Assembly (NCBI GenBank): GCA_021295785.1
Contig: JAGWBR010000006.1
Span: 17,229 to 81,228, forward strand
From: Gemmatimonadota bacterium
GTDB lineage: Bacteria; Gemmatimonadota; Gemmatimonadetes; Palauibacterales; Palauibacteraceae
DNA length: 64,000 nucleotides
Direction of reading: 5' to 3'
In this document: positions 5,641 to 18,775 of the stretch, piece by piece
How positions within the stretch are numbered: the stretch's first letter is position 1
Layout of the letters: each line of letters begins with the position of its first letter
The notes under the pieces: generated by a model
Told to the model about the DNA's origin: nothing
Databases searched by the model: none
What the model saw: only the letters and a program-made list of their open reading frames with translations
Program-made: the position numbers and the translations under genes

Positions 5641-7074
5641 TCACCCTCCTCTTGGAGTCAGAATCCGCGGAGTTACCAAGATCATGAGGTCCATCTTCAC
5701 CTCATTCACACTGCGAGAACGGAAAAGGCCGCCGATCAGGGGAAGGCGCATCAGACCGGGCACGCCCCGCTCGATCACTACGCGCTCGGCCAGTGTAAGC
5801 CCCCCGATTACGGCCGTTTCGCCGTCCTCAACCACCAGCGTCGTCTCCCCGACCTGCCGCTGAAATGTATAACCCTCGGCGCCGGTTGAGATTACGCCGG
5901 ACCGTTCGGCGGCCAGTTGCAGCCGGATGTTGCCATCTCCCAAGACCCGCGGAAGCACGTTCAGGATGATCCCCGTGTCCTCAAATCGGACGCTCACCCG
6001 AGCTTGTTCAAGCTGGGCGCCCGACTCCAGAACGCGGATCGGCGTGCGCTCTCCCACTTGGATGCGGGCCTCGGTGTTGTCCAGCGCGCGGATGGACGGT
6101 GCTGCCCGGACTTCGGTGAGGCGGGCGGTCTCGAGCGCTTCCAAAAAGCCGAACAGAGTGAAGTCCCCCAGGGCCGCGGCCACCAAGATCTGGAGCACCG
6201 GAGCGGCCACCCCCGCCCTGGCATCGGCCACGGCCGCGATGGCGGAGCCTCCGAAACTGACAATCGTCTCGTTGGTGAGATCGAATATGGCGGCGTCTGG
6301 CTCGCCGTCGCCGTCGGTGTCAACATCCTGCCGGCTGGCGGGGTCGGGGGCGGGAATTATGTGGTTAATGCCCTGCTCCACAGCGGCCCCCTGTCGGTCC
6401 TTCAGGTCGTAGGTAATGCCGAGGGCTTCGAGCCCCGATCTGTTCACATATATGATCTTGGCCTCGATCGCGATCTGCGGGCGGGGGCGATCCAGCTGGG
6501 CCACCACTCCAGCGATGCGGTCGAGCGCGGAGGGTGAGTCGGTGACCACCAGGGCGTTGGCCGCGGGATCGGCGACCACCTCCCCCAGGCCCGGAGTCAG
6601 CAAGTGCTGAAGGGAGTTCACGACCGCAACCGCCTCCGCGTGCTTCAATTCGAATACCGTTGCCTCGCGGCGGTAGCGCTGGCGGTCGTCCAGAGATTCC
6701 AGCCAGTCCACGACGATGATTCCCGCCTGGTTGGTTTCCCAACCGAGCCCCTGTGCCGTTAGGATCGCCTCCAGCGCATCCGGCCAGGGCCGGGACCGGA
6801 TATCCACCGCACGGATGGTCACGGCGGCCGCGTCGGCGTTGGGTGCAAACGAGAGGCCCGTGAACTCGGCGAGGGCCGCGAGCACATCCCTCACCTGAGC
6901 GCTGTCGAACGCCAGCGACACTCGCTGCGCGGTGAGGCCCGGGTCCCCTGCTTCGGGGCCCGCGACCGCTTCCGATTTGGTCGGGGCCCCCTCGGTGGCC
7001 TGGCCCCGGGTTTCCGCGACGTGGCCCGAGGCGAGTGCAACCGCCGCGGCCGCCAGGAGAACGCGGCGTTTCAC
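5641..7074 (-). CDS. pilQ: Type IV pilus secretin PilQ
   Basis: C-terminal secretin domain (ETAVIGGLT...GVPGLMRLPLIGGLFRS...MDLMILVTPRIL). N0/STN-like segment VSLAFDSAQVRDVLAALAEFTGLSF. Start set to GTG 7074-7072, giving the signal-peptide-like VKRRVLLAAAAVALASG and overlapping the upstream TAG by 1 nt. ATG 7125 is the alternative. Confidence 0.85.
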   Translation of the reverse strand: MKRRVLLAAAAVALASGHVAETRGQATEGAPTKSEAVAGPEAGDPGLTAQRVSLAFDSAQVRDVLAALAEFTGLSFAPNADAAAVTIRAVDIRSRPWPDALEAILTAQGLGWETNQAGIIVVDWLESLDDRQRYRREATVFELKHAEAVAVVNSLQHLLTPGLGEVVADPAANALVVTDSPSALDRIAGVVAQLDRPRPQIAIEAKIIYVNRSGLEALGITYDLKDRQGAAVEQGINHIIPAPDPASRQDVDTDGDGEPDAAIFDLTNETIVSFGGSAIAAVADARAGVAAPVLQILVAAALGDFTLFGFLEALETARLTEVRAAPSIRALDNTEARIQVGERTPIRVLESGAQLEQARVSVRFEDTGIILNVLPRVLGDGNIRLQLAAERSGVISTGAEGYTFQRQVGETTLVVEDGETAVIGGLTLAERVVIERGVPGLMRLPLIGGLFRSRSVNEVKMDLMILVTPRILTPRGG

Positions 7075-8057
7075 TAGCGGGGACTGCCCCCGGGCTCTTT
7101 CTGGTCCGCGGGACGGATCGTCCATGTTTCGCGGCGCGCAACCACCTCCCCTGCGCCGACCCCCGCCGTCACGATCACCGCGACCCCGGTCGGATAGATC
7201 CCGGTCACCAGGAGTGCGCCGGCCCGCTCGCCCTCTCCCAGAGCATGGCGATGTCCGGTGACGGGATCGGCAAACACGGCCACGCTGGCTCGCCGGTTGC
7301 TGTGGAGGATCCCAGTCAACACCAGTGAGGGCCCGCCGTGCGCTTCCCTGGTGTGAACCACCGGTGGCTCAAAGGGGTCGCGGGCGAATCTGTTCGCGGC
7401 GAGCAAACGGTCCAGTGGTGCCGGCAGAGGGGCTCGGCGGCCGGCCGGGCTGGCGCCTGGGTTGGTGACGGCAGCGGCGGGGGCGGCCGCGCCCGGGGTG
7501 GCGGAAGAGTGAACGGAGTATGTCTCGACAGACAATACCGCGCTGAGGATCCGGGGACCTTCGGCGGGCGCGCCTACGGGGCGGACCGACTCGACTCCGG
7601 GCCGGGCCATCCCGGGCAACGTCGCCGTTTGACCCAAGAACCGAGCAAGCCCGTGGTAGCTGCCTTCCGCCTCCACGCTCCAGTGCTGGCGCAGGAGACC
7701 CACGGCGGAATCCAAAACGGGGTCCGACGGCGTCAGGCGGAGAAGATCGACCCCTTGCCCGGCCGCGGCGGCTGTGAGCGCCCCGTAGGCCCGGCCAGCC
7801 TGGTCGGCCGAAGGAATCAATTCAACCAGCGCGGACGCCACCAGCAACTCCCGATCGACAGCTTTTTCGGTCTCCGAGACGGCGGGCTCGGTCTCGCGGC
7901 GCCGCTGGTTGCTTTCCTCCAGGGCCGTCACCTGCTCGCTGACAACATCAATCGCACGCTGCCGGGGCAGGACGACATTCTGGTACACCGGCACACCGGC
8001 AAGAACGATCAAGACGGCGGCCAGGTAATGGCTGCGTTTCGCACCGACCAGGCTCAA
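7074..8057 (-). CDS. pilO: PilO-like protein fused in frame to a PilP-like C-terminal domain
   Basis: Only the last ~327 codons of ORF 7074..8525 are used. TTG 8057-8055 overlaps the pilN TGA (TTGA). The order is a TM helix (HYLAAVLIVLAGVPVY), a coiled coil and PilO-like core, an Ala/Pro linker (~7416-7514), then a PilP-like module (ARDPFEPP...LVLTGILHSNRRASVAVFAD...GALLVTGIYPTGVAVIV). Confidence 0.65.
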   Translation of the reverse strand: MSLVGAKRSHYLAAVLIVLAGVPVYQNVVLPRQRAIDVVSEQVTALEESNQRRRETEPAVSETEKAVDRELLVASALVELIPSADQAGRAYGALTAAAAGQGVDLLRLTPSDPVLDSAVGLLRQHWSVEAEGSYHGLARFLGQTATLPGMARPGVESVRPVGAPAEGPRILSAVLSVETYSVHSSATPGAAAPAAAVTNPGASPAGRRAPLPAPLDRLLAANRFARDPFEPPVVHTREAHGGPSLVLTGILHSNRRASVAVFADPVTGHRHALGEGERAGALLVTGIYPTGVAVIVTAGVGAGEVVARRETWTIRPADQKEPGGSPR

Positions 8058-8674
8058 TCCACACCAGACCCGCTGGCCGGTGCCGACACCAACCGGGCAG
8101 AGACCGCGAACGCGTACCCACCGGCCGGGGAGCGCTGCGTTCCCAAGATCCGAACGTCTGTCAGCTGCGCCCAGTCGTGCAGTTTCCGGTGGAAATCGGT
8201 GACATCCAGGAGTGCGGCACCGAAACCCTGGATCTCCAACAGGGCGTCGGTCGCGCCGGGATCGTCGACGGGGTCCACCGTTATCCCGGTGAGCCAGACC
8301 GAGTCCGGGACATGCAGGGGCAGGCTGGCAAGGAACACCGGCCACACCAGCCGCAGCTCCTCCAACCGGTTGGCGGCCTCCCCGGCCCGACTGGCAAGTT
8401 CGGTCAGGGCCGCGAGGCTGTCCCGGGCGGTTGCACCACGCTCCAGCATGGCGGAGTCGGTCTGCGCTGTTTCCAAACGCATGCTCAGCGCCGCCTCCCG
8501 GTTCCCCTGGGCCCAAAGGACCCAAGCGCAGGCCACCGCGACCGCGAGGGCCAGGACCCCAAGCGCCACAACCGGCGTTGCGAATGGATTCCTCCCTTTG
8601 ACCGCGGGGTCGCGGGCCGGATCCCCCTGGGTTGGTCCCGCGGGGGGCTGGTTCCCAAGGTTGATGGTTATCAA
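8054..8674 (-). CDS. pilN: Type IV pilus assembly protein PilN
   Basis: TTG 8674-8672 overlaps the pilM TGA (TTGA). N-terminus LITINLGNQ (compare the PilN INLLP motif). One TM helix (VVALGVLALAVAVACAWVLW), then a coiled coil and periplasmic domain. Position between pilM and pilO. Confidence 0.75.
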   Translation of the reverse strand: MITINLGNQPPAGPTQGDPARDPAVKGRNPFATPVVALGVLALAVAVACAWVLWAQGNREAALSMRLETAQTDSAMLERGATARDSLAALTELASRAGEAANRLEELRLVWPVFLASLPLHVPDSVWLTGITVDPVDDPGATDALLEIQGFGAALLDVTDFHRKLHDWAQLTDVRILGTQRSPAGGYAFAVSARLVSAPASGSGVD

Positions 8675-9651
8675 CGGAACGACCTCAGGCCCAGTCCTAT
8701 GGTCGCCATCAGCCGCGCCCCCATCTCCGGACCCGTAGTCCGGATTCCGTCCAGGGCATCGCCCTTCATGTCGAGATTGGCGAGGGGCGTGGCCACCTGG
8801 GTCTGGATCCCCAGTCCTTCGCCCATTGCCCTGACCAGCCCCGGGGCCGCGGCACCACCTCCGCACAGGAAGACCGCGCCGATCCCGTCCGCGAGGTCTT
8901 CTTCCCGGACAAATCGCACTGCCCGGCCGGCAGCCTCAAGCAGTCGGGCAATTCGGCCCTTCAAGTCCGAGCCCGGTGCTTCCGCCTCGTCCGGTCCAAT
9001 CCGGATGTCGTCGGTACCGACCGCGACGCATCGCGCCAACACCGGCACCCCGGAGGCCAGAACCACGATCTCCGACTCCGACCGGCCAACGTCGATCAGG
9101 GCCGAAATACCGCGGACGGCACCAGGCCGGGAGTACACCAGCGCGTTCCTCAACGCCAGCGCCTCCACATCAATCGCGGCGACGGGAAAGCCGGTGGTCT
9201 GGGCCAACTCCAGTCGGTATTGGATTACGCGACGACGAGCAGCCACGATCAGCACATCCATGGTCCCGGTCTTCACGTCTCTTTCGAGGACCTGGGCATC
9301 GATTACAACATCGTCCATTTCGAACGGGATGTGTTGCTCGGCTTCCCACGGGAGCACGTCCTTGAGGTCGCGGTCGCCGGCATCTTCGATCTCGATTCGC
9401 TTCACCACGACGTCCCTGCCCCGCACGGCCGCCACGACCAACGTGTCCATACGCCGCGCGTGTTCCACGAGCCCTTCCAATGCACGTGCAATTCCGTCCT
9501 GCCAACGCCCGTTTTCGCAGGCGGCTTCGCCTGCCGCCAGCAGGCACGGGCGGCCGCTCGAATGTTCGATCAGGCTGGCCTTCACCGACCCCGTCCCGAT
9601 GTCGAGGCCCAGCGTTGCTCTGGGCCGCCGTTTCCCGGCCATCCAAATCAA
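8671..9651 (-). CDS. pilM: Type IV pilus assembly ATPase-fold protein PilM
   Basis: 326 aa with an actin-like fold. The phosphate-1 motif is LGLDIGTGSVKASLIE and the later motif is VFLCGGGAAAPGL. First gene of the pilMNOPQ order. Confidence 0.9.
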   Translation of the reverse strand: MIWMAGKRRPRATLGLDIGTGSVKASLIEHSSGRPCLLAAGEAACENGRWQDGIARALEGLVEHARRMDTLVVAAVRGRDVVVKRIEIEDAGDRDLKDVLPWEAEQHIPFEMDDVVIDAQVLERDVKTGTMDVLIVAARRRVIQYRLELAQTTGFPVAAIDVEALALRNALVYSRPGAVRGISALIDVGRSESEIVVLASGVPVLARCVAVGTDDIRIGPDEAEAPGSDLKGRIARLLEAAGRAVRFVREEDLADGIGAVFLCGGGAAAPGLVRAMGEGLGIQTQVATPLANLDMKGDALDGIRTTGPEMGARLMATIGLGLRSFR

Positions 9652-9653
9652 GG

Positions 9654-10490
9654 TTAGCCTCGGTATTCGAGCAGCCGGACCTCACGAACCACTTCCCGGT
9701 CGGCAGCTCCGCCGCCGGACTGCATTTGTCCGCGCAGGCGAACCGCGGACACGCGGGAAGAGGACGAATCCGGCACGCTGGTTTGCCAAATCGAATCAGC
9801 CACCAAGTACTCGAAGACAGCTCCCGGACCGAAGGTCACACCGTACTGTTGTCCGTTGCGCCTGAGCTCGCGGGCACCTCCGTCGCCTGCGGCCAGCGTG
9901 TAGGTCAGGGTTCCGTACACGCGAATCAGGCCCCCGGGTGCCGGGGGCCGGGCGAAAACCCCGTTCAGATCAGGTGTCTGCCGGTAGCCCGATCCCGAGC
10001 CGACTGCCCCCGCAGCCAAGCACTCCGCCTTTGCGGCGGAGGTGGCCCTGAGGGTCGGGTCGGTTCCCTCGGAGTAGGTGTACTCCGTTCCGTACGGGGG
10101 CAGGTATGCCGCGCCGCGCCCCCGCGAGGGCAGGTTGGGCGAGACCGCGCTGTAAACGAGGAGCGCCAGATCCCCGTCCGAGAGAGTACCGCATACCACC
10201 GCCCGTTCGATGTCGTACCTCACTGACAGGGTGTCGGCCAGAGTGGCGCGCAGGTCCCCGGGCGATATCTCGGCAAGCTCCGAGGCCATTCCGCCGGTCA
10301 CGGCCCGGGCAGCTGCCGCCAAGTCACTCAATTCGCTCATTCTTGTGTGGAACCGGGCCTGGTACACGACCAGCCCGGCCAGCGAGACACACAACAGGCT
10401 CGCGCCGGCGATTACCATCATCGCTTCCGCCAACACGAATCCGGCACATCGCGGGGCCACCTCCCCTGGCACAACTCGATGGCCGCTCAA
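9654..10490 (-). CDS. Minor (pseudo)pilin, PilW-like, with prepilin-type N-terminus
   Basis: 278 aa. Leader ...PRCAG then FVLAEAMMVIAGASLLCVSLAGLVVY (G/F-x-L-x-E class III signal). The TTG start overlaps the upstream TGA (10487-10490). Sits in the minor pilin row. Confidence 0.6.
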   Translation of the reverse strand: MSGHRVVPGEVAPRCAGFVLAEAMMVIAGASLLCVSLAGLVVYQARFHTRMSELSDLAAAARAVTGGMASELAEISPGDLRATLADTLSVRYDIERAVVCGTLSDGDLALLVYSAVSPNLPSRGRGAAYLPPYGTEYTYSEGTDPTLRATSAAKAECLAAGAVGSGSGYRQTPDLNGVFARPPAPGGLIRVYGTLTYTLAAGDGGARELRRNGQQYGVTFGPGAVFEYLVADSIWQTSVPDSSSSRVSAVRLRGQMQSGGGAADREVVREVRLLEYRG

Positions 10491-10882
10491 GGGGCCGGGG
10501 GCATCGCACGGCGCGCGACCAGCCGGGTCGCATGGATCAGCGTATCGGTCCCGTTAACAACCTTCACCGTTAGACCCTGCAAGTCCTCACCCAGGTCCAA
10601 CGCTTCGGTCGTTACGGTGTATGCCGCGCCATTCACCATCCGGGACGTGGTCCCGTTCACGGTGCCCGCCGGCGACCGGCGCACCTCCGCTGCTGCGTCC
10701 GCTGCCGCCAGGGTCATTTCGGCGTCGGCCCGGCCCAGACTGATCTGTCGGGCAACTGCCCCGGCGACGCCGGCCACGGCCAGCGCACCGACCGAGGCCA
10801 CAACCACCGCCAGCAGGAGTTCGACAAGCCCGAACCCCTCTTGACGTGGCGGCGGCACCGGCACTGTCCGCGGTCCCGTCAT
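10487..10882 (-). CDS. Minor pilin, PilV-like, prepilin-type N-terminus
   Basis: 131 aa. ...RQEG|FGLVELLLAVVVASVGALAVAGV. ATGA overlap with the upstream gene (10879-10882). Confidence 0.65.
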   Translation of the reverse strand: MTGPRTVPVPPPRQEGFGLVELLLAVVVASVGALAVAGVAGAVARQISLGRADAEMTLAAADAAAEVRRSPAGTVNGTTSRMVNGAAYTVTTEALDLGEDLQGLTVKVVNGTDTLIHATRLVARRAMPPAP

Positions 10883-11319
10883 CTGGAGACCTTTTCGCGT
10901 CTCACGCGCCCCAGAAAATTCGAGATCAACCGGATTCCCCGTTCATCGCGGTACAAGTACAGACTTCCCGCGGCGCCGTGTCCGCGGGCGTTGAACCGGA
11001 GGGTGGCCGGGCGGAGCGCGACAGAATCGGCACCACCCATGGCCACCTCGGCCAGATCCGTTCTGGCCACCAGAAAACCGTCCACTTTGCGGCGAGTCTC
11101 GACGATTGTCCCCGACACCGTCACATCCAGGCGCTCTCTGGCTGAGAGCGCACGCAGCCGGGCAGCCCTGAGGTGCGATTCGGCGACCGCTGCCGCCCTG
11201 GTCAGCCTGAGCCCCTCCAACCCGCCCCAGGCAGTGACCGCCGCCGCCGCCGCCAGAGCCGTTACCGCCATGGCCAGAACCACCTCAACGACCGTGAAAC
11301 CGCCGCACGCTTGGTTCAT
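10879..11319 (-). CDS. Minor pilin, FimT/GspH-like, prepilin-type N-terminus
   Basis: Start chosen at ATG 11319, giving MNQACGG|FTVVEVVLAMAVTALAAAAAV (7-aa leader). ATG 11379 is the alternative. The C-terminus ...LRFNARGHGAAGSLYLY... resembles the GspH/FimT pattern. The N-terminal 99 codons of ORF 10879..11616 are rejected. Confidence 0.65.
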   Translation of the reverse strand: MNQACGGFTVVEVVLAMAVTALAAAAAVTAWGGLEGLRLTRAAAVAESHLRAARLRALSARERLDVTVSGTIVETRRKVDGFLVARTDLAEVAMGGADSVALRPATLRFNARGHGAAGSLYLYRDERGIRLISNFLGRVRREKVSR

Positions 11320-11396: not shown

Positions 11397-13823
11397 TCAA
11401 GGGCGTATCAAAAAGGCAATTCCCGCCGCGAGAAACGAGAGAGAAACCCAGAGCCCCGCGGTGAAGCTCGCTGGCTGGTAGCGGAAGACCACGTCGGTCT
11501 CGCCGGCCTCTACTTGGACCGCGCGAAAAAAGCGGTTGGCCGTATGGATCGGCCGCACCGCGCCGTCCACGCGAGCTTTCCACCCGGGATAGGACGAGTC
11601 GGTCAGTACCACCCACCCCGGCTGCCCACTGGTGACGATCCGAACCCGCCCGGGGTGGTTTTCCACAATTCTGGCACCCGGGAAACCGTCTTTCCGCGCG
11701 CTCTCGACATCGGTTTCCGACCGGGGCCTCGGCCGGTGTCGCGGCCGGGCCGCGAGGACGACCGCCGTGGCCGGATCAAAATCGGGACTCAGCAACAGGT
11801 CCACCGCCTCAACCTCGTCCGTGGCTATCACTGCGCGAGGAACCACGTATGCGCGGGGGAGCGGGCTGCGCAGTTCATACACCACGCCGGGGAGTCCGCG
11901 CACCAGGGAAACCGAATCCGCAGCCGCGAATGTCGGGATGGCGGGGCGCGCCAACAGGTAGCGAACGCTGTGGAGGCGAAGAAGCCGCCAGCGCCGTCGC
12001 CAGTCAAGGATCCGGAGCAGCTGCCGCGCGTCTTCGGCCCGCGACAGACGCAGCGCATCCCAGGCGTCCTGCTGCTGAATTCCGTGCAAAAGCCCGGTAT
12101 TGGGAGCGGCTGTTTCTCGCCACGCCAACTTCTGGAGATGCACGGGGAGGCCGGGGGTCGCACCAATCGCCCTGCGTCGGTCGTCAAATGGACTGCTCCG
12201 CCACCGGTAGTCGACGCGAGTCTGGTCCAGTCGCGCGGGCCCCAAGACCGCCGGCGCTTTGGTGAAGAACTCAAGGGGCGCCACGGGAGCCAGGCCGCGG
12301 TGGCTGGCGGCGAGGTCGGCAACGGTGATGAGACAGATCAAGACTCCCGCCTTCCGCGGGGAGACCAGGCCGCGCCGGGCGAAGTGCACTACGGTACTCG
12401 CAAGACCGGCGACTGCGGCCGCCGCGGCCAAGGCACCCTGCCATGCCCGCAGCACGTACTGCGGGTCATCGGCCATGCGCGGGTTGCCCCAGTGGTCCGC
12501 CAGCTTCGCCACCCACGCCGCGCTCCCCTCCAAACCGAGGGCCGCGGCCACCAGCACTACCGGCCAGCAGACCAGCCACGGGAACCCGCCCCGGCGCGGC
12601 CGCCCCAGCGCCGCCTCTGTTGCGATAGTTGTGACGGCCGACGCTGCCAGGGCCGTCAGTAGGAAATACTTTTCCGGGAATCGAAACACGCTGAGCCAGG
12701 GCACCGCCTGAAGCAAAAAGGGGAACACCGGCCCGTGACGGCCGGCGGCCAGCACCAGACCCACGAAGCCGATCCCGGTCCAGAACAGGTATTCCCGCCT
12801 TCGGGTGCTCCCGGGGCTCCCGAGTCCGAGCACCAGCCAGAGTGGGAACGCCCCACCCAGGTAGAGAGAAAACAACCACGGTTCGGTCTGCCCGATCATG
12901 GCGCGGACTCCGAACGAAAACTCGGGGTCTCGAAAGCTCGGGGGCACGGCCAGATGAACGAGGCGGACCGGCTCCAGCGAGAACGCCATCACCTCGCCGG
13001 GAGCCAACCCGCCCTGTCGCGAGGAGTTGGCAACCAGCTCGGCCGTCGGAAGCAGTTGCACCGCGCAGAGTCCCAGCGTCCACACACCGGCGAGCGCCAG
13101 GCAGGCAACGGAACGCCAACCGAATCCCGCCCCTCTTGCCCGGACTGCCCTCCGTTCCAAAAAAAGGATCACGGCGGCGGCCAAGGCCCCGGTCAGCACA
13201 GCTATCTGGATCTCGCCGGCCAGGACGCACATCGTCGATGTGGCCACCAGCGCCGCACATTTGTTCGTCGACGGGCGGTGCCACGCCTCCACGGCGGCCC
13301 AGACTACCCAGGGCGTCCATGCCGAAGCCTGGAGGGCGCCCAGGAGGTTGAGGAGAGAGGCCATGTACCCGCCCAACATCCAGACGGCGGCGCCCGAAAA
13401 GGCGGCGGCGGAAGTAGCCGCGTTTTCGGGCGGAGCCTGGACCGGGCCAAGCCCCCGTCGCGACCGGCGGATGCGGGTCCTCTGGTTCAGCAGAGCCAGC
13501 GCCCCGCATCCGCCGGTCGCCAAGTGAAAGACGATCAACCAGTTGAACGCCGCGTCGAACGGCAGCACGGCAAACAACCAGTGAGGCGGATAGAACACGC
13601 CCGACTGCAGGTTCGCCAGCAGCGGCGCGCCCGTGCCAATCAGGGGCGACCACAACGGGATTTCGCCGGCACGGAGGGCCTCCGCGAGGAGTGCCCTCAT
13701 CGGAACGAAGAACATCTGCATGTCGCGGGCGACCGGGAGGCCGACCAGAGTCGTCATCTCCCAGAACGTGCCGGCCGCTATGGCTGTAAGCGCCGTCGCC
13801 AGCCAGAGGCTGCGACGCCTCAA
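11397..13823 (-). CDS. YfhO-family polytopic membrane protein (GT-C-type glycosyltransferase fold)
   Basis: 808 aa with many TM segments. N-terminus: VARDMQMFFVPMRALLAEALRAGEIPLWSPLIGTGAPLLANLQSGVFYPPHW. C-terminus: LTDSSYPGWKARVDGAVRPIHTANRFFRAVQVEAGETDVVFRYQPASFTAGLWVS. Both ends fit the YfhO family pattern. Begins 13 nt downstream of pilA. Confidence 0.8.
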   Translation of the reverse strand: MRRRSLWLATALTAIAAGTFWEMTTLVGLPVARDMQMFFVPMRALLAEALRAGEIPLWSPLIGTGAPLLANLQSGVFYPPHWLFAVLPFDAAFNWLIVFHLATGGCGALALLNQRTRIRRSRRGLGPVQAPPENAATSAAAFSGAAVWMLGGYMASLLNLLGALQASAWTPWVVWAAVEAWHRPSTNKCAALVATSTMCVLAGEIQIAVLTGALAAAVILFLERRAVRARGAGFGWRSVACLALAGVWTLGLCAVQLLPTAELVANSSRQGGLAPGEVMAFSLEPVRLVHLAVPPSFRDPEFSFGVRAMIGQTEPWLFSLYLGGAFPLWLVLGLGSPGSTRRREYLFWTGIGFVGLVLAAGRHGPVFPFLLQAVPWLSVFRFPEKYFLLTALAASAVTTIATEAALGRPRRGGFPWLVCWPVVLVAAALGLEGSAAWVAKLADHWGNPRMADDPQYVLRAWQGALAAAAAVAGLASTVVHFARRGLVSPRKAGVLICLITVADLAASHRGLAPVAPLEFFTKAPAVLGPARLDQTRVDYRWRSSPFDDRRRAIGATPGLPVHLQKLAWRETAAPNTGLLHGIQQQDAWDALRLSRAEDARQLLRILDWRRRWRLLRLHSVRYLLARPAIPTFAAADSVSLVRGLPGVVYELRSPLPRAYVVPRAVIATDEVEAVDLLLSPDFDPATAVVLAARPRHRPRPRSETDVESARKDGFPGARIVENHPGRVRIVTSGQPGWVVLTDSSYPGWKARVDGAVRPIHTANRFFRAVQVEAGETDVVFRYQPASFTAGLWVSLSFLAAGIAFLIRP

Positions 13824-13836
13824 CTTTAACTGCCGG

Positions 13837-14265
13837 TCAACAATCGGTCGCTTCTAGGACATGCCCCACGCTCCCTTCCGCCTCCTCGGGCGAGGTGTTG
13901 ACACACCAGGTGTTTGCGGAACTGGCGTGTTTGGCCGTGATCAGGTACCCGTCGTCATACTTGGTCGCCTGAAGCGCAACGTTGGCGCTGGCCTGGAAAT
14001 CGAGAATCCCGTCGCCGTCGAGGTCTGCGTTGTCTCCCGCCGACACCGTCTGATCTGCATACGCCAGATTGGCGGCGTAATACACCTCCTGCGCGGTCAT
14101 CAGATTGCGCAGGTCGCTTTTGGCCGAAGCGTCGTAGGCCTGCTCTTTGGTGCTGGTGAACTGGGGTATTGCGATCGCGGCCAGTATCCCGACAATGACC
14201 ACGACCGTGAGAAGTTCGATCAGGGTAAACCCGCTGTCGGGTGCCTTCCCTTTTATTCTTGACAT
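13837..14265 (-). CDS. pilA: Major type IVa pilin PilA
   Basis: ATG 14265 is preceded by GGGAG (complement of 14274-14278). MSRIKGKAPDSG|FTLIELLTVVVIVGILAAIAIPQF. The C-terminal disulfide loop is C-VNTSPEEAEGSVGHVLEATD-C. GC looks locally lower. Confidence 0.92.
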   Translation of the reverse strand: MSRIKGKAPDSGFTLIELLTVVVIVGILAAIAIPQFTSTKEQAYDASAKSDLRNLMTAQEVYYAANLAYADQTVSAGDNADLDGDGILDFQASANVALQATKYDDGYLITAKHASSANTWCVNTSPEEAEGSVGHVLEATDC

Positions 14266-14404: not shown

Positions 14405-14830
14405 TCACCAATCGGGGGGTTCGTCGAATCCCGTGGCCGACACCAACAGGCCGCTGCGGGTCTGAGCCGTCAGCGAGCAGTCGCTCTCCCCCGCACCGCG
14501 GGGGCTGGGCAGCAGAAATCGAAGCATCTCCGGTCCGCCGGCCTGCCCGGTGCCGGCATGGGGCACGGGCTGCAACCCGAGCTTGCGGAGGACGCGCTCC
14601 GCCGGCCCGGCCGGGGGGTCCAGATGAATCGTCCAAGACCGAACTTGTGCGCCGCCCAGGCGGACCCGCACCTCCCACCGCCGCGCATCCCCACCGCCTG
14701 CGAAACGCGCCCAGGTCTCCGCACCAGCGGAGGTGCGGGCCACCGGATCCCCCAGGCGCGCGACTGCCTCCTCCAGGGTTGCCCCGATGAGCCCGCCGAG
14801 GTTGGGCAGATCGCCGGCGGACCGGGTCAC
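14405..14830 (-). CDS. Hypothetical 141-aa protein translationally coupled to pilC
   Basis: GTG 14830-14828 overlaps the pilC TGA (GTGA). VTRSAGDLPNLGGLIGATLEEAVARLGDPVARTSAGAETWARFAGGGDARRWEVRVRLGG...GFDEPPDW. This is the last 141 codons of the otherwise spurious ORF 14405..15886. No family recognised. Confidence 0.55.
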   Translation of the reverse strand: MTRSAGDLPNLGGLIGATLEEAVARLGDPVARTSAGAETWARFAGGGDARRWEVRVRLGGAQVRSWTIHLDPPAGPAERVLRKLGLQPVPHAGTGQAGGPEMLRFLLPSPRGAGESDCSLTAQTRSGLLVSATGFDEPPDW

Positions 14831-15912
14831 TGGACGTGCGTGGCGATGGTGAGGATCGGCAGGTACATGGCGATAATCATCCCGCCCACAACGCCGCCAA
14901 AGCCCAACACCATCGCCGGTTCCAGCAGCTTGAGGCTGGAATCCACTGCCGCACTGACCTCCATGTCGTAGGCGTCGGCCACCGATTCCAGCATCTCGGG
15001 GAGCCCGCCGGTTTCTTCGCCGACTGCGATCATCTGGGTGGCCATGAGCGGGAACACGCCCGACTCCCGGAGCGGAGCGGCAATCGACTTGCCCGCCGCA
15101 ATCTCTGCCCGGCTGTCGAAGACGGCATCGCTCACTGCCCGGTTGTCCGCCGTGCGGGCTGCCAGTTCCATGCCGTCCAAGATAGGCACGCCGGAAGTCA
15201 GCATGGCCGACAGGGTCCGCGAGAACCGGGCCACCGCGGCCCTTCTCAAGATCCTCCCCGCTACCGGAAGCGTCAGGAGAATCCGATCGATGCGGAGCCG
15301 GCCGCTGCGCGTGGCCGCCCACTGGCGGAGGCCGACCCCGGCGAGCAGCGGCAAGGACAGTATCGCCCACCAGTAGCGGGCCAGACGGTCGGAGGCACCC
15401 ATGAGAAGGCGCGTCGGAAGCGGGAGCGGGGCACCCAGGCTGTCGAAAACCTCCTTGAAGGCGGGTGTCACGAAAGCGAGCAGAACGACGGCCGACAGGA
15501 CGGCCACAACCAGGATCACGGCCGGGTAGAGCATCGCTCCGATCAACTTGGTTCTGGCCTCGTCCATCCGGCCCAGTATCATCGAGAGCCGGAACAGAAC
15601 CGATTCCAGGGTACCGCCTGCCTCGCCCGCCGCCACCATGTTTATGTAGAGGGGGTTGAATGTTGCCGGCCACCGAGCCATGGCCTCCGCCAGACCATTT
15701 CCCGACTCCACCTCTCGCAGGGTCGCGGAAACCGCTTTCGAGAGGCGTGGACTCGTTTCTTGCTGGGCCAGGACTGCGAGTGACTGGTCCATTGGCAGGC
15801 CGGCCTTTGTCATCACCGCCAGCTGTTTGGTGAACGATACCAACTGCCGCGGCGGGGGCGGTCGCTGCACCGCGCCGGCGAACCAATCCCCAATCGACCG
15901 GGCCGCGGTCAC
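14827..15912 (-). CDS. pilC: Type IV pilus platform protein PilC (GspF family)
   Basis: Two GspF repeats (FTKQLAVMTKAGLPMDQSL... and FSRTLSAMLTSGVPILDGM...). Start moved to GTG 15912-15910, which overlaps the pilT TGA (GTGA). Confidence 0.9.
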   Translation of the reverse strand: MTAARSIGDWFAGAVQRPPPPRQLVSFTKQLAVMTKAGLPMDQSLAVLAQQETSPRLSKAVSATLREVESGNGLAEAMARWPATFNPLYINMVAAGEAGGTLESVLFRLSMILGRMDEARTKLIGAMLYPAVILVVAVLSAVVLLAFVTPAFKEVFDSLGAPLPLPTRLLMGASDRLARYWWAILSLPLLAGVGLRQWAATRSGRLRIDRILLTLPVAGRILRRAAVARFSRTLSAMLTSGVPILDGMELAARTADNRAVSDAVFDSRAEIAAGKSIAAPLRESGVFPLMATQMIAVGEETGGLPEMLESVADAYDMEVSAAVDSSLKLLEPAMVLGFGGVVGGMIIAMYLPILTIATHVQ

Positions 15913-17042
15913 CCCCCGGCCTGCCGGGCCAATTCGACCTTCCGCTTGAGGCCGGCTGGATTCGGGCTGACCGACAGGCAGGTGTCCGGCGTCACCTCTC
16001 CCGCCATACACAGCCACGCCAGCGAGTCATTCAGACTCTGCATTCCGTGGCGTTTCCCGGCCTGGATGGAAGACCCGATCTGGTGCCCCCGGTCTTCCCG
16101 GATCAGAGCCCTTACCGCGGCGGTGACCCGCAGGATCTCGCACGCGGCCACTCTTCCCCGGCCCGACGCACGCGGCAACAGCGTTTGCGACACGACCCCC
16201 TCAAGGACCGACGCCGTCTGGGCCCGAACTCGGTCGCGCTCTCCGGCGGGGAAAGCGTCGATGAGCCGGCTGACCGATTCACTGGCGGAACCGGTGTGCA
16301 GTGTGGTCAGCACCAAATGCCCCGTCTCGGCTGCGGTGAGGGCGGCCTGGATGGTGTCGGGGTCTCTCGCCTCTCCCACCATGATCACATCCGGATCCTG
16401 CCTGAGCGCCGATCGCAGCGCGGAGGCGAAGCCGGCGGTATCACGCCCGACTTCGCGCTGCCGCACGAGACAGCGACGGGATTCGTAAACGAACTCGACC
16501 GGGTCCTCGATTGTCAGGACGTGGGCGTCACGTTCGCTGTTGATCAGTCCGATCATCCCCGCCAGCGTGGTCGATTTTCCGCTGCCGGTCGCGCCGGTGA
16601 CCAGCACGAGCCCCCGACCCAGCAGGGCCAGATCGCGCACTGCCCCGGGCAGGCCGAGATCCGAAAGGGACGGGGGGACGGGTGGAACCCTGCGGATCGC
16701 CGCGGCAGTTTCGCCTCCGCACCGGAACACGTTGAATCGATACCGGGGCGCGGCCGAATCCGCGGTGCCAGATCCCGGCGGGCCGTTCGACCGCGCTGCC
16801 GGGGACCAGGCGAAATCGGCCTCACCAGATCCCGACAGCTCCTCGGCGGCACCCGGAGGCAAGACCGACCTGACCATGGCCGCCACGCCTTCGGGCGGAA
16901 TGGCTTCGCCCTTCGCCCGCAGGGTTCCGTCAACTCGCACCCGCATGACACGGCCCGGAGACAGGTGAAGGTCGGACGCCCCGCACGCTTCCATCACGGC
17001 AAGGGCCGCCCGCATTTCCTCCGCCGCGACCGGGGCGGTCAA
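15909..17042 (-). CDS. pilT: Twitching-motility retraction ATPase PilT family
   Basis: 377 aa. Walker A LVLVTGATGSGKSTTLAGMIGLIN, then HVLTIEDPVEF, and ...LVLTTLHTGSASESVSRLID. The TTG start overlaps the pilB TGA. Confidence 0.9.
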   Translation of the reverse strand: MTAPVAAEEMRAALAVMEACGASDLHLSPGRVMRVRVDGTLRAKGEAIPPEGVAAMVRSVLPPGAAEELSGSGEADFAWSPAARSNGPPGSGTADSAAPRYRFNVFRCGGETAAAIRRVPPVPPSLSDLGLPGAVRDLALLGRGLVLVTGATGSGKSTTLAGMIGLINSERDAHVLTIEDPVEFVYESRRCLVRQREVGRDTAGFASALRSALRQDPDVIMVGEARDPDTIQAALTAAETGHLVLTTLHTGSASESVSRLIDAFPAGERDRVRAQTASVLEGVVSQTLLPRASGRGRVAACEILRVTAAVRALIREDRGHQIGSSIQAGKRHGMQSLNDSLAWLCMAGEVTPDTCLSVSPNPAGLKRKVELARQAGG

Positions 17043-18775
17043 GCGCTCGTCACGCGAAGTACCTCTTCCAGGGTAGTGGTTCCCCGCACAGCCTTTTTCA
17101 GGCCGTCGCGGCGAAGAGTCACCATGCCCTCTTCTACTGCACGCTGTTTGATCTGGTGCGCGGGGGCACGGTCCAGCGCCAGCTGCCTGATGGCCCTGGA
17201 CATCGGCATCACTTCATACAGACCGCGCCTCCCGGAGAACCCCGTGAGCCCGCACGCGTCGCACCCGGCGCCCCGCCGGAACCGGGCACCCGACGCCTCG
17301 GCCGGGTCCATTCCCGCTTCGCGCAGGGCCCGCGGCAGGTAGCGGGTTTCCCGCGAACAGTTGCCACACACGCAACGCACGAGACGCTGGGCTGTTACCA
17401 GGTTGATCGCGGCCGCGGCGTTAAACGGCTCCACCCCCATGTCCACTAGACGCGTAACCGTGGAGGCAGCATCGTTGGTGTGCAGGGTCGACAAGACCAG
17501 GTGCCCGGTCAGGGCTGCCTTCACCGCTATGCTGGCGGTTTCCAGGTCCCGTATCTCGCCGACCAGGACGATGTCAGGGTCCTGCCGAAGGAACGACCGC
17601 AGAGCAGCGGCGAAGGTCAGACCAATCGCGGGACGGACCTGTACTTGATTGACACCGGTCATGTTGTATTCGACCGGGTCCTCCGCCGTTTGGATGTTGA
17701 CTCCGTCGGTGTTGAGCCGCGCCAGCACGCTGTACAGGGTCGTGGTCTTGCCCGATCCCGTCGGCCCGGTAACCAGCACCATCCCGTGCGGATCTTCCAG
17801 GGCCGTCATGAATTCGCGTTCGGCCCGGCGCCCCATTCCGAAGGCACCAAGGTCCATTGCGAGCGTGCCCCGGTCGAGAACTCTCAACACGATCTTCTCG
17901 CCAGACAGCGTGGGCAGCGTAGACACACGCATGTCCACCGCCCCGTCGGGCCGCGTCACTTTGATTCGGCCGTCCTGGGGCAGTCTGCGCTCGGCGATGT
18001 TGAGGTTGGCCATGATTTTCAACCTGGATGACAGACTGGCCGCCATTTCCAGTGGCGGAGCCGAGACCTGCTGCAGCGCGCCATCGATCCGGTACCGTAC
18101 GCGCAGCTCCCGCTCGTACGGTTCGATGTGGATGTCCGATGCTCCCCTTGATATCGCGGATTCGAGCATTTCGTCGATGAAACGAACCGCCGGCTCGTCA
18201 CCCAGTTCCACCCAAGCTCCGCGGGGCAGGTCATCGCGGTCGTCCGGGCCGCTCGGGTCGCTCCGCACCTCTGGTTTGCCGACCTCGTCCAGTTCTTCGA
18301 TCAACCGGGTGACCGCGACTTCCGGGGTTGGATACTGCCTCTCGATAAGCTCCAGAAGCGCCATTTCTCCCGCGGCGGCCGGTTCGATCTCCATCCCCGC
18401 AATAAACTCGAGGTCCTCGACCAGGCGGAGGTTATCAGGCTCACCCATCGCCACAACCAATCGGCCGGCCCGGCTCGATACCGGGCAAAGAAAATTCCTG
18501 TGCGCGAAGGTCCCGGGCACCCGGTGCGCCACCGAATCCGGCACCCCGGAAGCAGCCTGCCCGTTCAGTTCCAGCACCTGAACACCCATGACTTCGCCAA
18601 CCACACCGGCGATGGCGGCCTCCGACGCAATGCCCAGCGCCGCCAGGCAGTACCCAAGACGCATCCCGCTCCGTGCCCGTTCGGCCAGTCCCTGTTCGGC
18701 CTGATCGGTCGTGATCGCACCCCGGCTGGTTAGCTCCGCGAGCACGGCGCGCTCCGCCCGTGTCAGCCCGCGCAC
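17039..18775 (-). CDS. pilB: Type IV pilus assembly ATPase PilB (GspE family)
   Basis: 578 aa. N-terminal T2SSE_N-like domain. Walker A VLVTGPTGSGKTTTLYS. Tetracysteine CVCGNC...CDACGLTGFSGRRGLYEVM. Confidence 0.93.
   Translation of the reverse strand: MRGLTRAERAVLAELTSRGAITTDQAEQGLAERARSGMRLGYCLAALGIASEAAIAGVVGEVMGVQVLELNGQAASGVPDSVAHRVPGTFAHRNFLCPVSSRAGRLVVAMGEPDNLRLVEDLEFIAGMEIEPAAAGEMALLELIERQYPTPEVAVTRLIEELDEVGKPEVRSDPSGPDDRDDLPRGAWVELGDEPAVRFIDEMLESAISRGASDIHIEPYERELRVRYRIDGALQQVSAPPLEMAASLSSRLKIMANLNIAERRLPQDGRIKVTRPDGAVDMRVSTLPTLSGEKIVLRVLDRGTLAMDLGAFGMGRRAEREFMTALEDPHGMVLVTGPTGSGKTTTLYSVLARLNTDGVNIQTAEDPVEYNMTGVNQVQVRPAIGLTFAAALRSFLRQDPDIVLVGEIRDLETASIAVKAALTGHLVLSTLHTNDAASTVTRLVDMGVEPFNAAAAINLVTAQRLVRCVCGNCSRETRYLPRALREAGMDPAEASGARFRRGAGCDACGLTGFSGRRGLYEVMPMSRAIRQLALDRAPAHQIKQRAVEEGMVTLRRDGLKKAVRGTTTLEEVLRVTSA

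Follow-up and report, generated by a model that had tools for sequence, protein, structure and literature searches.

What is the role of a large membrane protein that is encoded between the major pilin gene and the minor pilin genes of a type IV pilus cluster? This question is raised by a stretch of DNA of 64,000 nucleotides (nt), hereafter the window (positions 17,229 to 81,228 of the forward strand of contig JAGWBR010000006.1, assembly GCA_021295785.1), which comes from a Gemmatimonadota genome assembled from a metagenome. A yfhO-like gene (11397-13823, minus strand) encodes a protein of 808 amino acids (aa), and was identified as a candidate pilin glycosyltransferase from its open reading frame, its homologues and a model of its fold. 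An earlier note on this DNA had placed the open reading frame 13 nt after the pilA stop, on the same strand and between the major and minor pilin genes, and this placement was confirmed from the sequence. The reading favored here, with a probability of roughly 0.6, is that the gene encodes a pilin-dedicated YfhO-type O-glycosyltransferase of the GT-C fold, which would act in the periplasm with a polyprenyl-phosphate sugar. The minor pilins encoded just downstream are possibly further acceptors. No paper linking YfhO to pilins was found among those listed in a literature search, which agrees with the statement of the earlier note that YfhO-type enzymes had not been tied to type IV pilin modification, and nothing relevant was found in the literature on pili of Gemmatimonadota.

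The presumed acceptor is the product of pilA (13837-14265, minus strand), a type IVa-like major prepilin of 142 aa with the prepilin motif G|FTLIE and N_methyl, typeIV_PilA and GspG N-terminal matches. Orthologues of this PilA show 50-67% identity across the host's taxonomic family. A phylum sample of 400 Gemmatimonadota genomes was searched with the 808-aa protein, and 17 strong orthologues (E <= 6e-28; families f1, f9 and f12) and a set of weak matches (about 1e-11 to 1e-24) were found. A pilin gene is located immediately upstream on the same strand at all 17 strong orthologue loci; none of the 12 fetched loci of the weak matches, which are paralogues, contains a pilin inside 1.5 kb. When PilA was the starting point, yfhO was found 3' of pilA in 23 of the 30 best pilA loci (20 genera of the host's taxonomic family). 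The pair is kept in several different gene layouts, of which that of the window (pilA-yfhO-minor pilins-pilMNOPQ, with the upstream part pilC-x-pilA-yfhO) also occurs elsewhere. Genome G086 has the order pilA-yfhO-PMT_2-minor pilins, and G135 and G270 have pilR-pilA-yfhO-PMT_2 with pilC 17-34 kb from the pair; across G270, G135 and G316 this distance is 12-34 kb. In two of three f12 genomes (L017 and L018), yfhO comes after a tandem pair of pilins of another type.

The comparison outside the phylum was made with the 80 nearest relatives from a scan of GTDB species genomes. Pilin-adjacent homologues were identified in four 'Deltaproteobacteria' metagenome-assembled genomes (MAGs), three of which are listed under Myxococcota at NCBI, and in two Syntrophorhabdales. 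In a fifth 'Deltaproteobacteria' MAG, yfhO follows a pilin gene that is broken at its 5' end, and in one Saganbacteria genome the pilin is one gene away from yfhO. With the Gemmatimonadota counted, pilin adjacency extends over at least three phyla. The more distant relatives among the 80 loci have no pilin beside yfhO. Metagenome contigs with independent gene calls showed the order pilB-pilC-pilSR-pilin-YfhO for three further homologues (28-29% identity), and placed one more distant homologue in a tandem YfhO array with no pilin nearby. Conservation of the pilA-YfhO linkage and the clade grouping of the protein had both been set beforehand as tests by the earlier note; both were run and both passed, the linkage holding for the strong orthologues, for most of the pilA loci and for Myxococcota-labelled and Syntrophorhabdales relatives. 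Tandem YfhO arrays of two or three paralogues were also observed in their own right, both next to a pilin (L037, 3833-8794; L039, 3884-8642) and away from one (L192, 5001-12383), the latter together with a fusion of a methyltransferase and a family 2 glycosyltransferase (GT2). A pilin-YfhO fusion was considered and rejected: the single candidate, an 849-aa frame covering a pilA match in G414, turned out to be just a long open frame upstream and bears no similarity to YfhO, and the homologue lengths in the clade of the window protein (about 800 aa) give no sign of a fusion.

Pilin adjacency also follows the relationships among the proteins. The adjacency label changes 5 times on a quick tree of 112 sequences (23.7 with shuffled labels) and 4 times on a careful tree of 53 sequences (18 with shuffled labels). 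The model was LG+G4 without mixtures, several long branches were flagged, and the relatives are not independent observations. The YfhO proteins of Bacillus subtilis, Listeria and streptococci are not among the sequences of these trees. The window protein falls into a clade of 22 rows (support 96/92), of which 20 are pilin-adjacent; the remaining two correspond to the locus whose pilin gene is broken and to the second copy of a tandem pair. Syntrophorhabdales together with Gemmatimonadota of family f12 make up another pilin-linked group (88/94), which lies within a neighboring clade that includes pilin-less members as well. A clade of its own (100/100) comprises the ordinary YfhO paralogues of Gemmatimonadota; it is never found beside a pilin, and across the phylum many of its members adjoin orthologues of two genes, one for a GT2 resembling GtrB/CsbB and the other for a flippase-like membrane protein. 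The pilin-linked protein thus stands outside the YfhO clade with carrier partners, which is the outcome that the proposal of the earlier note called for. Since the two clades are separate and have distinct neighbors, the phylum contains two YfhO lineages, one tied to carrier-sugar synthases and the other tied to pilA.

Both lineages are present in the host. Its second YfhO-like gene, an 859-aa open frame of the paralogue clade, is located on contig C4 (about 61.8-66.8 kb; G000; L002 and L176), where the order is the 859-aa YfhO-like gene, a 384-aa flippase-like gene, a 347-aa GtrB/CsbB-like GT2 gene with C-terminal membrane helices and a candidate glycosyltransferase-like frame. To judge by these genes, the contig C4 set is a classical multi-component transmembrane glycosylation set.

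The 808-aa protein has full-length homologues at 38-45% identity in a large protein collection (E down to 1e-182), and the yfhO-like gene is therefore real. The named homologues in this range all come from Gemmatimonadota MAGs, two being called 'YfhO family protein' by NCBI, and a precomputed PF09586 match is found on nearly all homologues at 25-45% identity. By homology, the protein is placed as a distant member of the YfhO family. Searches of NCBIfam and of PDB sequences with the protein gave no match, and no Pfam match to Wzy_C (PF04932), TPR or PMT_2 was found in it. An AlphaFold2 model built with 35 homologues reached a predicted local distance difference test score (pLDDT) of 88 and a predicted template modeling score (pTM) of 0.91. 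When this model was compared with the PDB by Foldseek, all six matches with E <= 0.001 were GT-C enzymes (AftD, ArnT and STT3; probability 1.00, target TM-score up to 0.48), and the next matches were PglB, EmbC/EmbB and Pmt4. AftD, ArnT, STT3, PglB, EmbC and Pmt4 all depend on a lipid carrier.

Short loops rich in Arg and Lys alternate along the protein (the N-terminus with RRR, 113-125, 223-238, 336-352, 407-412 and 483-493). This alternation points to a topology with the N-terminus inside, in which the loop 22-82 with Asp34 is periplasmic and the final helix returns to the cytoplasm. Since the loop 483-493 is Arg/Lys-rich and hence cytoplasmic, the large domain of 275 residues between the last two helices (codons 513-787; 11463-12287, minus strand) is placed in the periplasm; in the model it is helical and then beta-rich. 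The final membrane helix covers residues 785-806 according to the model and hydropathy, and the overall layout of about 13 helices plus a large outer domain is that of the YfhO family. Two strings quoted in the earlier note were both located. VARDMQMFF corresponds to residues 31-39 (13707-13733, minus strand) in the first periplasmic loop and contains the candidate catalytic Asp34 (13722-13724), as judged from alignment and topology. The module YPGWKARVDG...FRYQP corresponds to residues 745-784 (11472-11591, minus strand) and is the only portion matched by the Pfam YfhO model. The residue at position 34 is Asp in 28 of 28 pilin-linked and 73 of 84 other YfhO-like sequences (101 of 112 in the alignment), and Arg33 is specific to the pilin-linked set in the same alignment. 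Residues retained across the family are W58, G65, P67, Y78-P79, R269, R540, D503 (D/E), D742 (D/E) and P746-G747-W748, as well as G774. With its GT-C fold and these retained residues, the protein looks like an active GT-C enzyme, in which Asp34 would have a catalytic role. The GT-C fold and periplasm-facing Asp proposed in the earlier note are thus supported as predictions by the AlphaFold2 model, Foldseek, the alignment and the positive-inside pattern.

Several characterized enzymes resemble the one proposed here. The YfhO family was defined via teichoic-acid glycosylation in Bacillus and Listeria, and B. subtilis YfhO is described with about 13 helices, the last two of which flank a large outer loop (PMC5836110). 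B. subtilis YfhO and Lmo1079 are the founding members of PF09586 and have the same predicted helix and outer-domain layout as the window protein, whereas they are teichoic-acid N-acetylglucosamine transferases with Gram-positive wall polymers as acceptors. They share an operon with the GT2 CsbB, an arrangement that in the host genome is found at the contig C4 paralogue and not at the pilin-linked gene. Gemmatimonadota are conventionally described as Gram-negative, and none of the 80 nearest relatives of the window protein in GTDB species genomes belongs to Bacillota.

In streptococci, extracytoplasmic Ser/Thr-rich protein segments are O-glycosylated by two enzymes of the YfhO family, PgtC2 (with GtrB) and PgfM1 (with PgfS) (bioRxiv 10.1101/2024.05.05.592596), and protein acceptors are therefore established for the family. 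These enzymes belong to the Pfam family in which the window protein is a distant, marginally scoring member. They are thought to move single sugars from undecaprenyl-phosphate sugar to Ser/Thr, with the catalytic motif on the outer face, as is predicted for the window protein. They are Bacillota enzymes whose targets are disordered tails in adhesins and in membrane-associated proteins, and they are encoded or paired with a GT2, whereas for the window protein the partner is a folded pilin, no GT2 lies adjacent, and Pfam recognizes the last 60 residues only.

Pilin glycosyltransferases encoded right after pilA have been described in Pseudomonas aeruginosa. TfpW of group IV strains (Pa5196/PA7) is a GT-C pilin D-arabinofuranosyltransferase of 646 aa, with about 11 helices and a C-terminal TPR domain, that has been modelled on ArnT (bioRxiv 10.1101/2020.04.19.049825). 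Like the window gene, tfpW is located immediately 3' of pilA on the same strand as an optional accessory of the pilin locus, and TfpW uses a polyprenyl-phosphate sugar. The window protein differs in its length of 808 aa, in a beta-rich periplasmic domain followed by a final helix, in lacking TPR and PMT_2 and in its YfhO C-terminal signature; it belongs to a distinct GT-C family, and no D-arabinofuranose biosynthesis genes were seen. The gene for TfpO/PilO of group I likewise comes directly after pilA, and the enzyme modifies pilin with glycans in the periplasm, but TfpO/PglL enzymes belong to the unrelated Wzy_C (PF04932) family and use undecaprenyl-pyrophosphate as the carrier from which a preassembled glycan is transferred en bloc. 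The logic of a glycosyltransferase after pilA is thus familiar, and what would be new here is a different enzyme family in little-studied phyla.

Other candidate glycosylation genes accompany the pair in relatives. Two PMT_2-type GT-C genes, a GT2 gene and an S-adenosylmethionine (SAM) methyltransferase gene follow pilA-yfhO in G135 (L186), a PMT_2 gene follows it in G270 (L185) and G086 (L187), and a methyltransferase gene and a GT2 gene follow it in G222 (L184). A convergent trio of PMT_2, methyltransferase and GT2 genes was identified in a Myxococcota-labelled MAG (L034) and in a related metagenome contig (L190). Locus L036 contains a 542-aa candidate PMT_2-like frame and a GT2 gene, and no methyltransferase was seen there. 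The GT2 genes near the pair in some relatives differ from the contig C4 type. The neighbors in G135, G270, G086 and G222 suggest a multi-enzyme pilin glycan pathway, possibly with a methylated sugar, of which the window keeps one enzyme. In a Syntrophorhabdales genome with the order pilB-pilC-pilA-yfhO (L047), a 599-aa gene with Wzy_C and TPR matches (6193-7992) is located directly after yfhO; going by its sequence, this pilin locus holds both a YfhO-type and a TfpO/PglL-type candidate glycosyltransferase.

The cluster also occurs without the gene. The order pilB-pilT-pilC-pilA-minor pilin-pilM without yfhO was found in G058 (L143), G082 (L142) and G423 (L183), the first two being complete genomes of the host's genus. 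In these loci the first minor pilin starts about 150 nt after pilA, and the minor pilin directly follows pilA in G058 and G082. Because the same cluster occurs without yfhO in three relatives, the gene is dispensable for the pilus machinery and represents an optional accessory, as are the pilin accessory genes of Pseudomonas. The presence or absence of yfhO is a clean polymorphism of an accessory gene between closely related species, whose pilins are 66-68% identical to the window PilA.

Several observations weigh against a pilin-dedicated enzyme. The earlier note had pointed to the Ser/Thr-rich segments HASSANTW and VNTSPEE as potential targets; they are present in PilA, but equally in relatives that lack yfhO. 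The pilins of G058, G082 and G423 are 49-68% identical to the window PilA and contain the same Ser/Thr segments (KHASSxNTWCVNxS), and they also retain the terminal disulfide loop. When 23 pilins from loci that have yfhO were aligned with 5 from loci that lack it, no pilin feature tracked the enzyme; Ser/Thr content is 15-34% with or without yfhO, and the segment H-x-S-S...C-V-N-x-S is common to both sets. This lack of a tracking feature weighs mildly against a highly specific recognition site. Neither a GT2 gene nor a flippase gene adjoins yfhO in the window, and GtrA and PMT_2 were not found in the host genome, the assembly of which is 85% complete. The synteny counts overstate the evidence because the genomes are related and are not independent observations, and adjacency cannot separate the major pilin, the minor pilins and another periplasmic acceptor. 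The Pfam YfhO (PF09586) match is marginal, covering residues 736-794 only with 28.3 bits against a cut-off of 28.5 in hmmscan (30.8 bits in a six-frame search). The main basis of the YfhO-like label is therefore the chain of homologues together with the fold; in that form the family assignment of the earlier note stands, with Pfam matching the C-terminal module only and at the cut-off.

The absence of a co-varying pilin feature would be expected to matter less for a broad-spectrum periplasmic protein O-glycosyltransferase of the Neisseria PglL or streptococcal PgtC2 kind, for which pilin would be one abundant client among Ser/Thr-rich envelope proteins. The characterized YfhO-family protein glycosyltransferases do act on several membrane-associated proteins. 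Nevertheless, pilA is the strict neighbor of the gene in different phyla and cluster layouts, which speaks for a dedicated partner, and the second, GT2-linked YfhO paralogue in the genome could cover general roles, so that a broad client range is considered unlikely here. Pilins that are alike with or without the gene would also suit a non-protein envelope acceptor, such as lipopolysaccharide, a glycolipid or a pilus-associated exopolysaccharide, with the position in the pil cluster serving merely for co-regulation. Teichoic acids are the acceptors of the YfhO members that were characterized first, those of B. subtilis (YfhO) and Listeria (Lmo1079) (PMC5836110), and the closest solved folds (ArnT, AftD and Emb) belong to enzymes acting on lipids or polysaccharides. 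This alternative is a shade less probable than the preceding one: in the three genomes with a remote pilC (G270, G135 and G316) the gene tracks pilA and not the pilus machinery, a TfpO/PglL-like gene adjoins yfhO in one relative, and the paralogue with classical GT2 and flippase-like partners is a more natural decorator of envelope polymers.

A further alternative is that the protein has a non-catalytic role in pilin assembly, comparable to that of TfpY or TfpZ, and merely retains a GT-C scaffold. Other pilin accessory genes at the same genomic position do not encode enzymes (PMC11841053), and the weak Pfam match would fit such a role. However, all residues conserved across the family are kept, including Asp34 and the Arg and Asp positions common to the 84 other homologues, glycosylation genes cluster with yfhO in relatives, and the cluster is otherwise unchanged without yfhO in G058 and G082; a non-catalytic protein is therefore highly improbable. 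A substitute prepilin peptidase was also considered and rejected, as a prepilin peptidase gene (Peptidase_A24) is located elsewhere in the genome on contig C3 and the fold of the protein is GT-C.

For the pilin-dedicated O-glycosyltransferase, the following mechanism can be proposed. The genes pilA and yfhO would be read as one transcript, and the weak TTG start, which lacks a Shine-Dalgarno sequence, would limit the enzyme to low amounts compared with pilin. The enzyme, located in the inner membrane, is predicted to have its N-terminus inside, with about 13 helices before the 275-residue periplasmic domain and one after it, and Asp34 in the first periplasmic loop is predicted to be the catalytic base. 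The donor would be a polyprenyl-phosphate monosaccharide, made on the cytoplasmic face of the membrane by a GtrB/CsbB-type GT2 and then flipped. By analogy with the pairs CsbB-YfhO and GtrB-PgtC2, the best candidate for the donor synthase is the 347-aa GT2 beside the paralogous YfhO on contig C4. The acceptor would be the periplasmic globular domain of pilin subunits that are held in the inner membrane before assembly, as would be expected from type IV pilus biology, and the enzyme would thus act as an optional accessory outside the assembly machine.

The sequence between the two genes bears on the first of these steps. The pilA-yfhO spacer consists of 13 nt (13824-13836, minus strand) and contains no clear Shine-Dalgarno sequence ahead of the TTG start, and a terminator scan found no terminator-like element between the two genes on the minus strand. 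The pilA stop (TGA) is located at 13839-13837. An in-frame TAG is located at 13856-13854, because of which the TTG at 13823 is the only possible start of the yfhO-like gene. Some gene calls for near-identical database copies are of 786 aa, a length that fits a start at Met23 (window 13755-13823); with such a start, the first membrane helix would be lost and the predicted topology reversed. Residues 5-22 are conserved among orthologues and W21 and E22 are invariant, which supports the longer 808-aa form with the TTG start.

The remainder of the pil cluster lies on the minus strand of a region with a G+C content of about 67%, in the order pilB-pilT-pilC-small frame-pilA-yfhO-like gene-two minor pilins-278-aa frame-pilM, followed by further pil genes (pilMNOPQ). 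The genes pilB, pilT and pilC are located at 17039-18775, 15909-17042 and 14827-16017, respectively (all minus strand). The product of pilC is a platform protein with GspF/PilC NCBIfam matches (E = 1e-101), and its true start is probably internal to the frame because pilT ends at 15909. The first minor pilin (10879-11319, minus strand) starts 77 nt downstream of the yfhO-like gene and encodes a protein of 146 aa with an N_methyl motif and a GspH/FimT-like tail (...LISNFLGRVRR). The second (10487-10882, minus strand) is PilV-like, with N_methyl and weak TIGR02523 PilV matches. The gene pilM is located at 8671-9651 (minus strand). Between the minor pilins and pilM, a 278-aa frame (9654-10490, minus strand) has no Pfam or NCBIfam match; its counterpart by position in L193 is a third gene (275 aa) with a faint N_methyl match, and the 266-aa pilin-like frames of G058 and G082 are probably its counterparts as well. 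This frame likely encodes a large PilX/PilW-like minor pilin.

In some of the related loci, a protein of about 686 aa is encoded just upstream of pilA (L190, 2941-5001; L191, 2967-5045). It consists of a PilS six-helix membrane sensor, PAS domains, a sigma-54 activator and an HTH_8 DNA-binding domain, and the Pfam families listed for it include neither a histidine kinase nor a receiver domain. Frames of about 680 aa after pilC in L034-L036 and L045 are of the same kind. From its domain content, this protein looks like a one-component PilS-PilR fusion.

A wider proposal can be built on the pilin-dedicated enzyme, although taken jointly its parts fall a little short of an even chance. YfhO-type GT-C enzymes would add a third class to the dedicated type IV pilin glycosyltransferases, recruited independently of the Wzy_C-type TfpO/PglL and of the ArnT-like TfpW, and this class would have a wide distribution among uncultured Gemmatimonadota, lineages labelled Myxococcota and Syntrophorhabdales. 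In its full form, with a PMT_2 GT-C enzyme, a GT2 and a methyltransferase, the system would build a short, possibly methylated pilin glycan sugar by sugar in the periplasm, and the host genome would contain a minimal version with one enzyme.

Pilin glycosylation shapes the surface chemistry of the pilus, recognition by phages and predators, and adhesion. To our knowledge, nearly all that is known of its enzymology comes from a few proteobacterial pathogens. If the reading given here is true, pilin glycosylation extends to large, mostly uncultured phyla of soil and sediment, and a branch of a very large and poorly characterized GT-C family gains a concrete acceptor. The pilin and one enzyme would then form a compact test system, for which related genomes without the gene provide a natural comparison. 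Should the island of YfhO, PMT_2, GT2 and methyltransferase genes assemble glycans step by step in the periplasm, bacteria would have, on the pilus, a counterpart of eukaryotic pathways of the O-mannosylation type.

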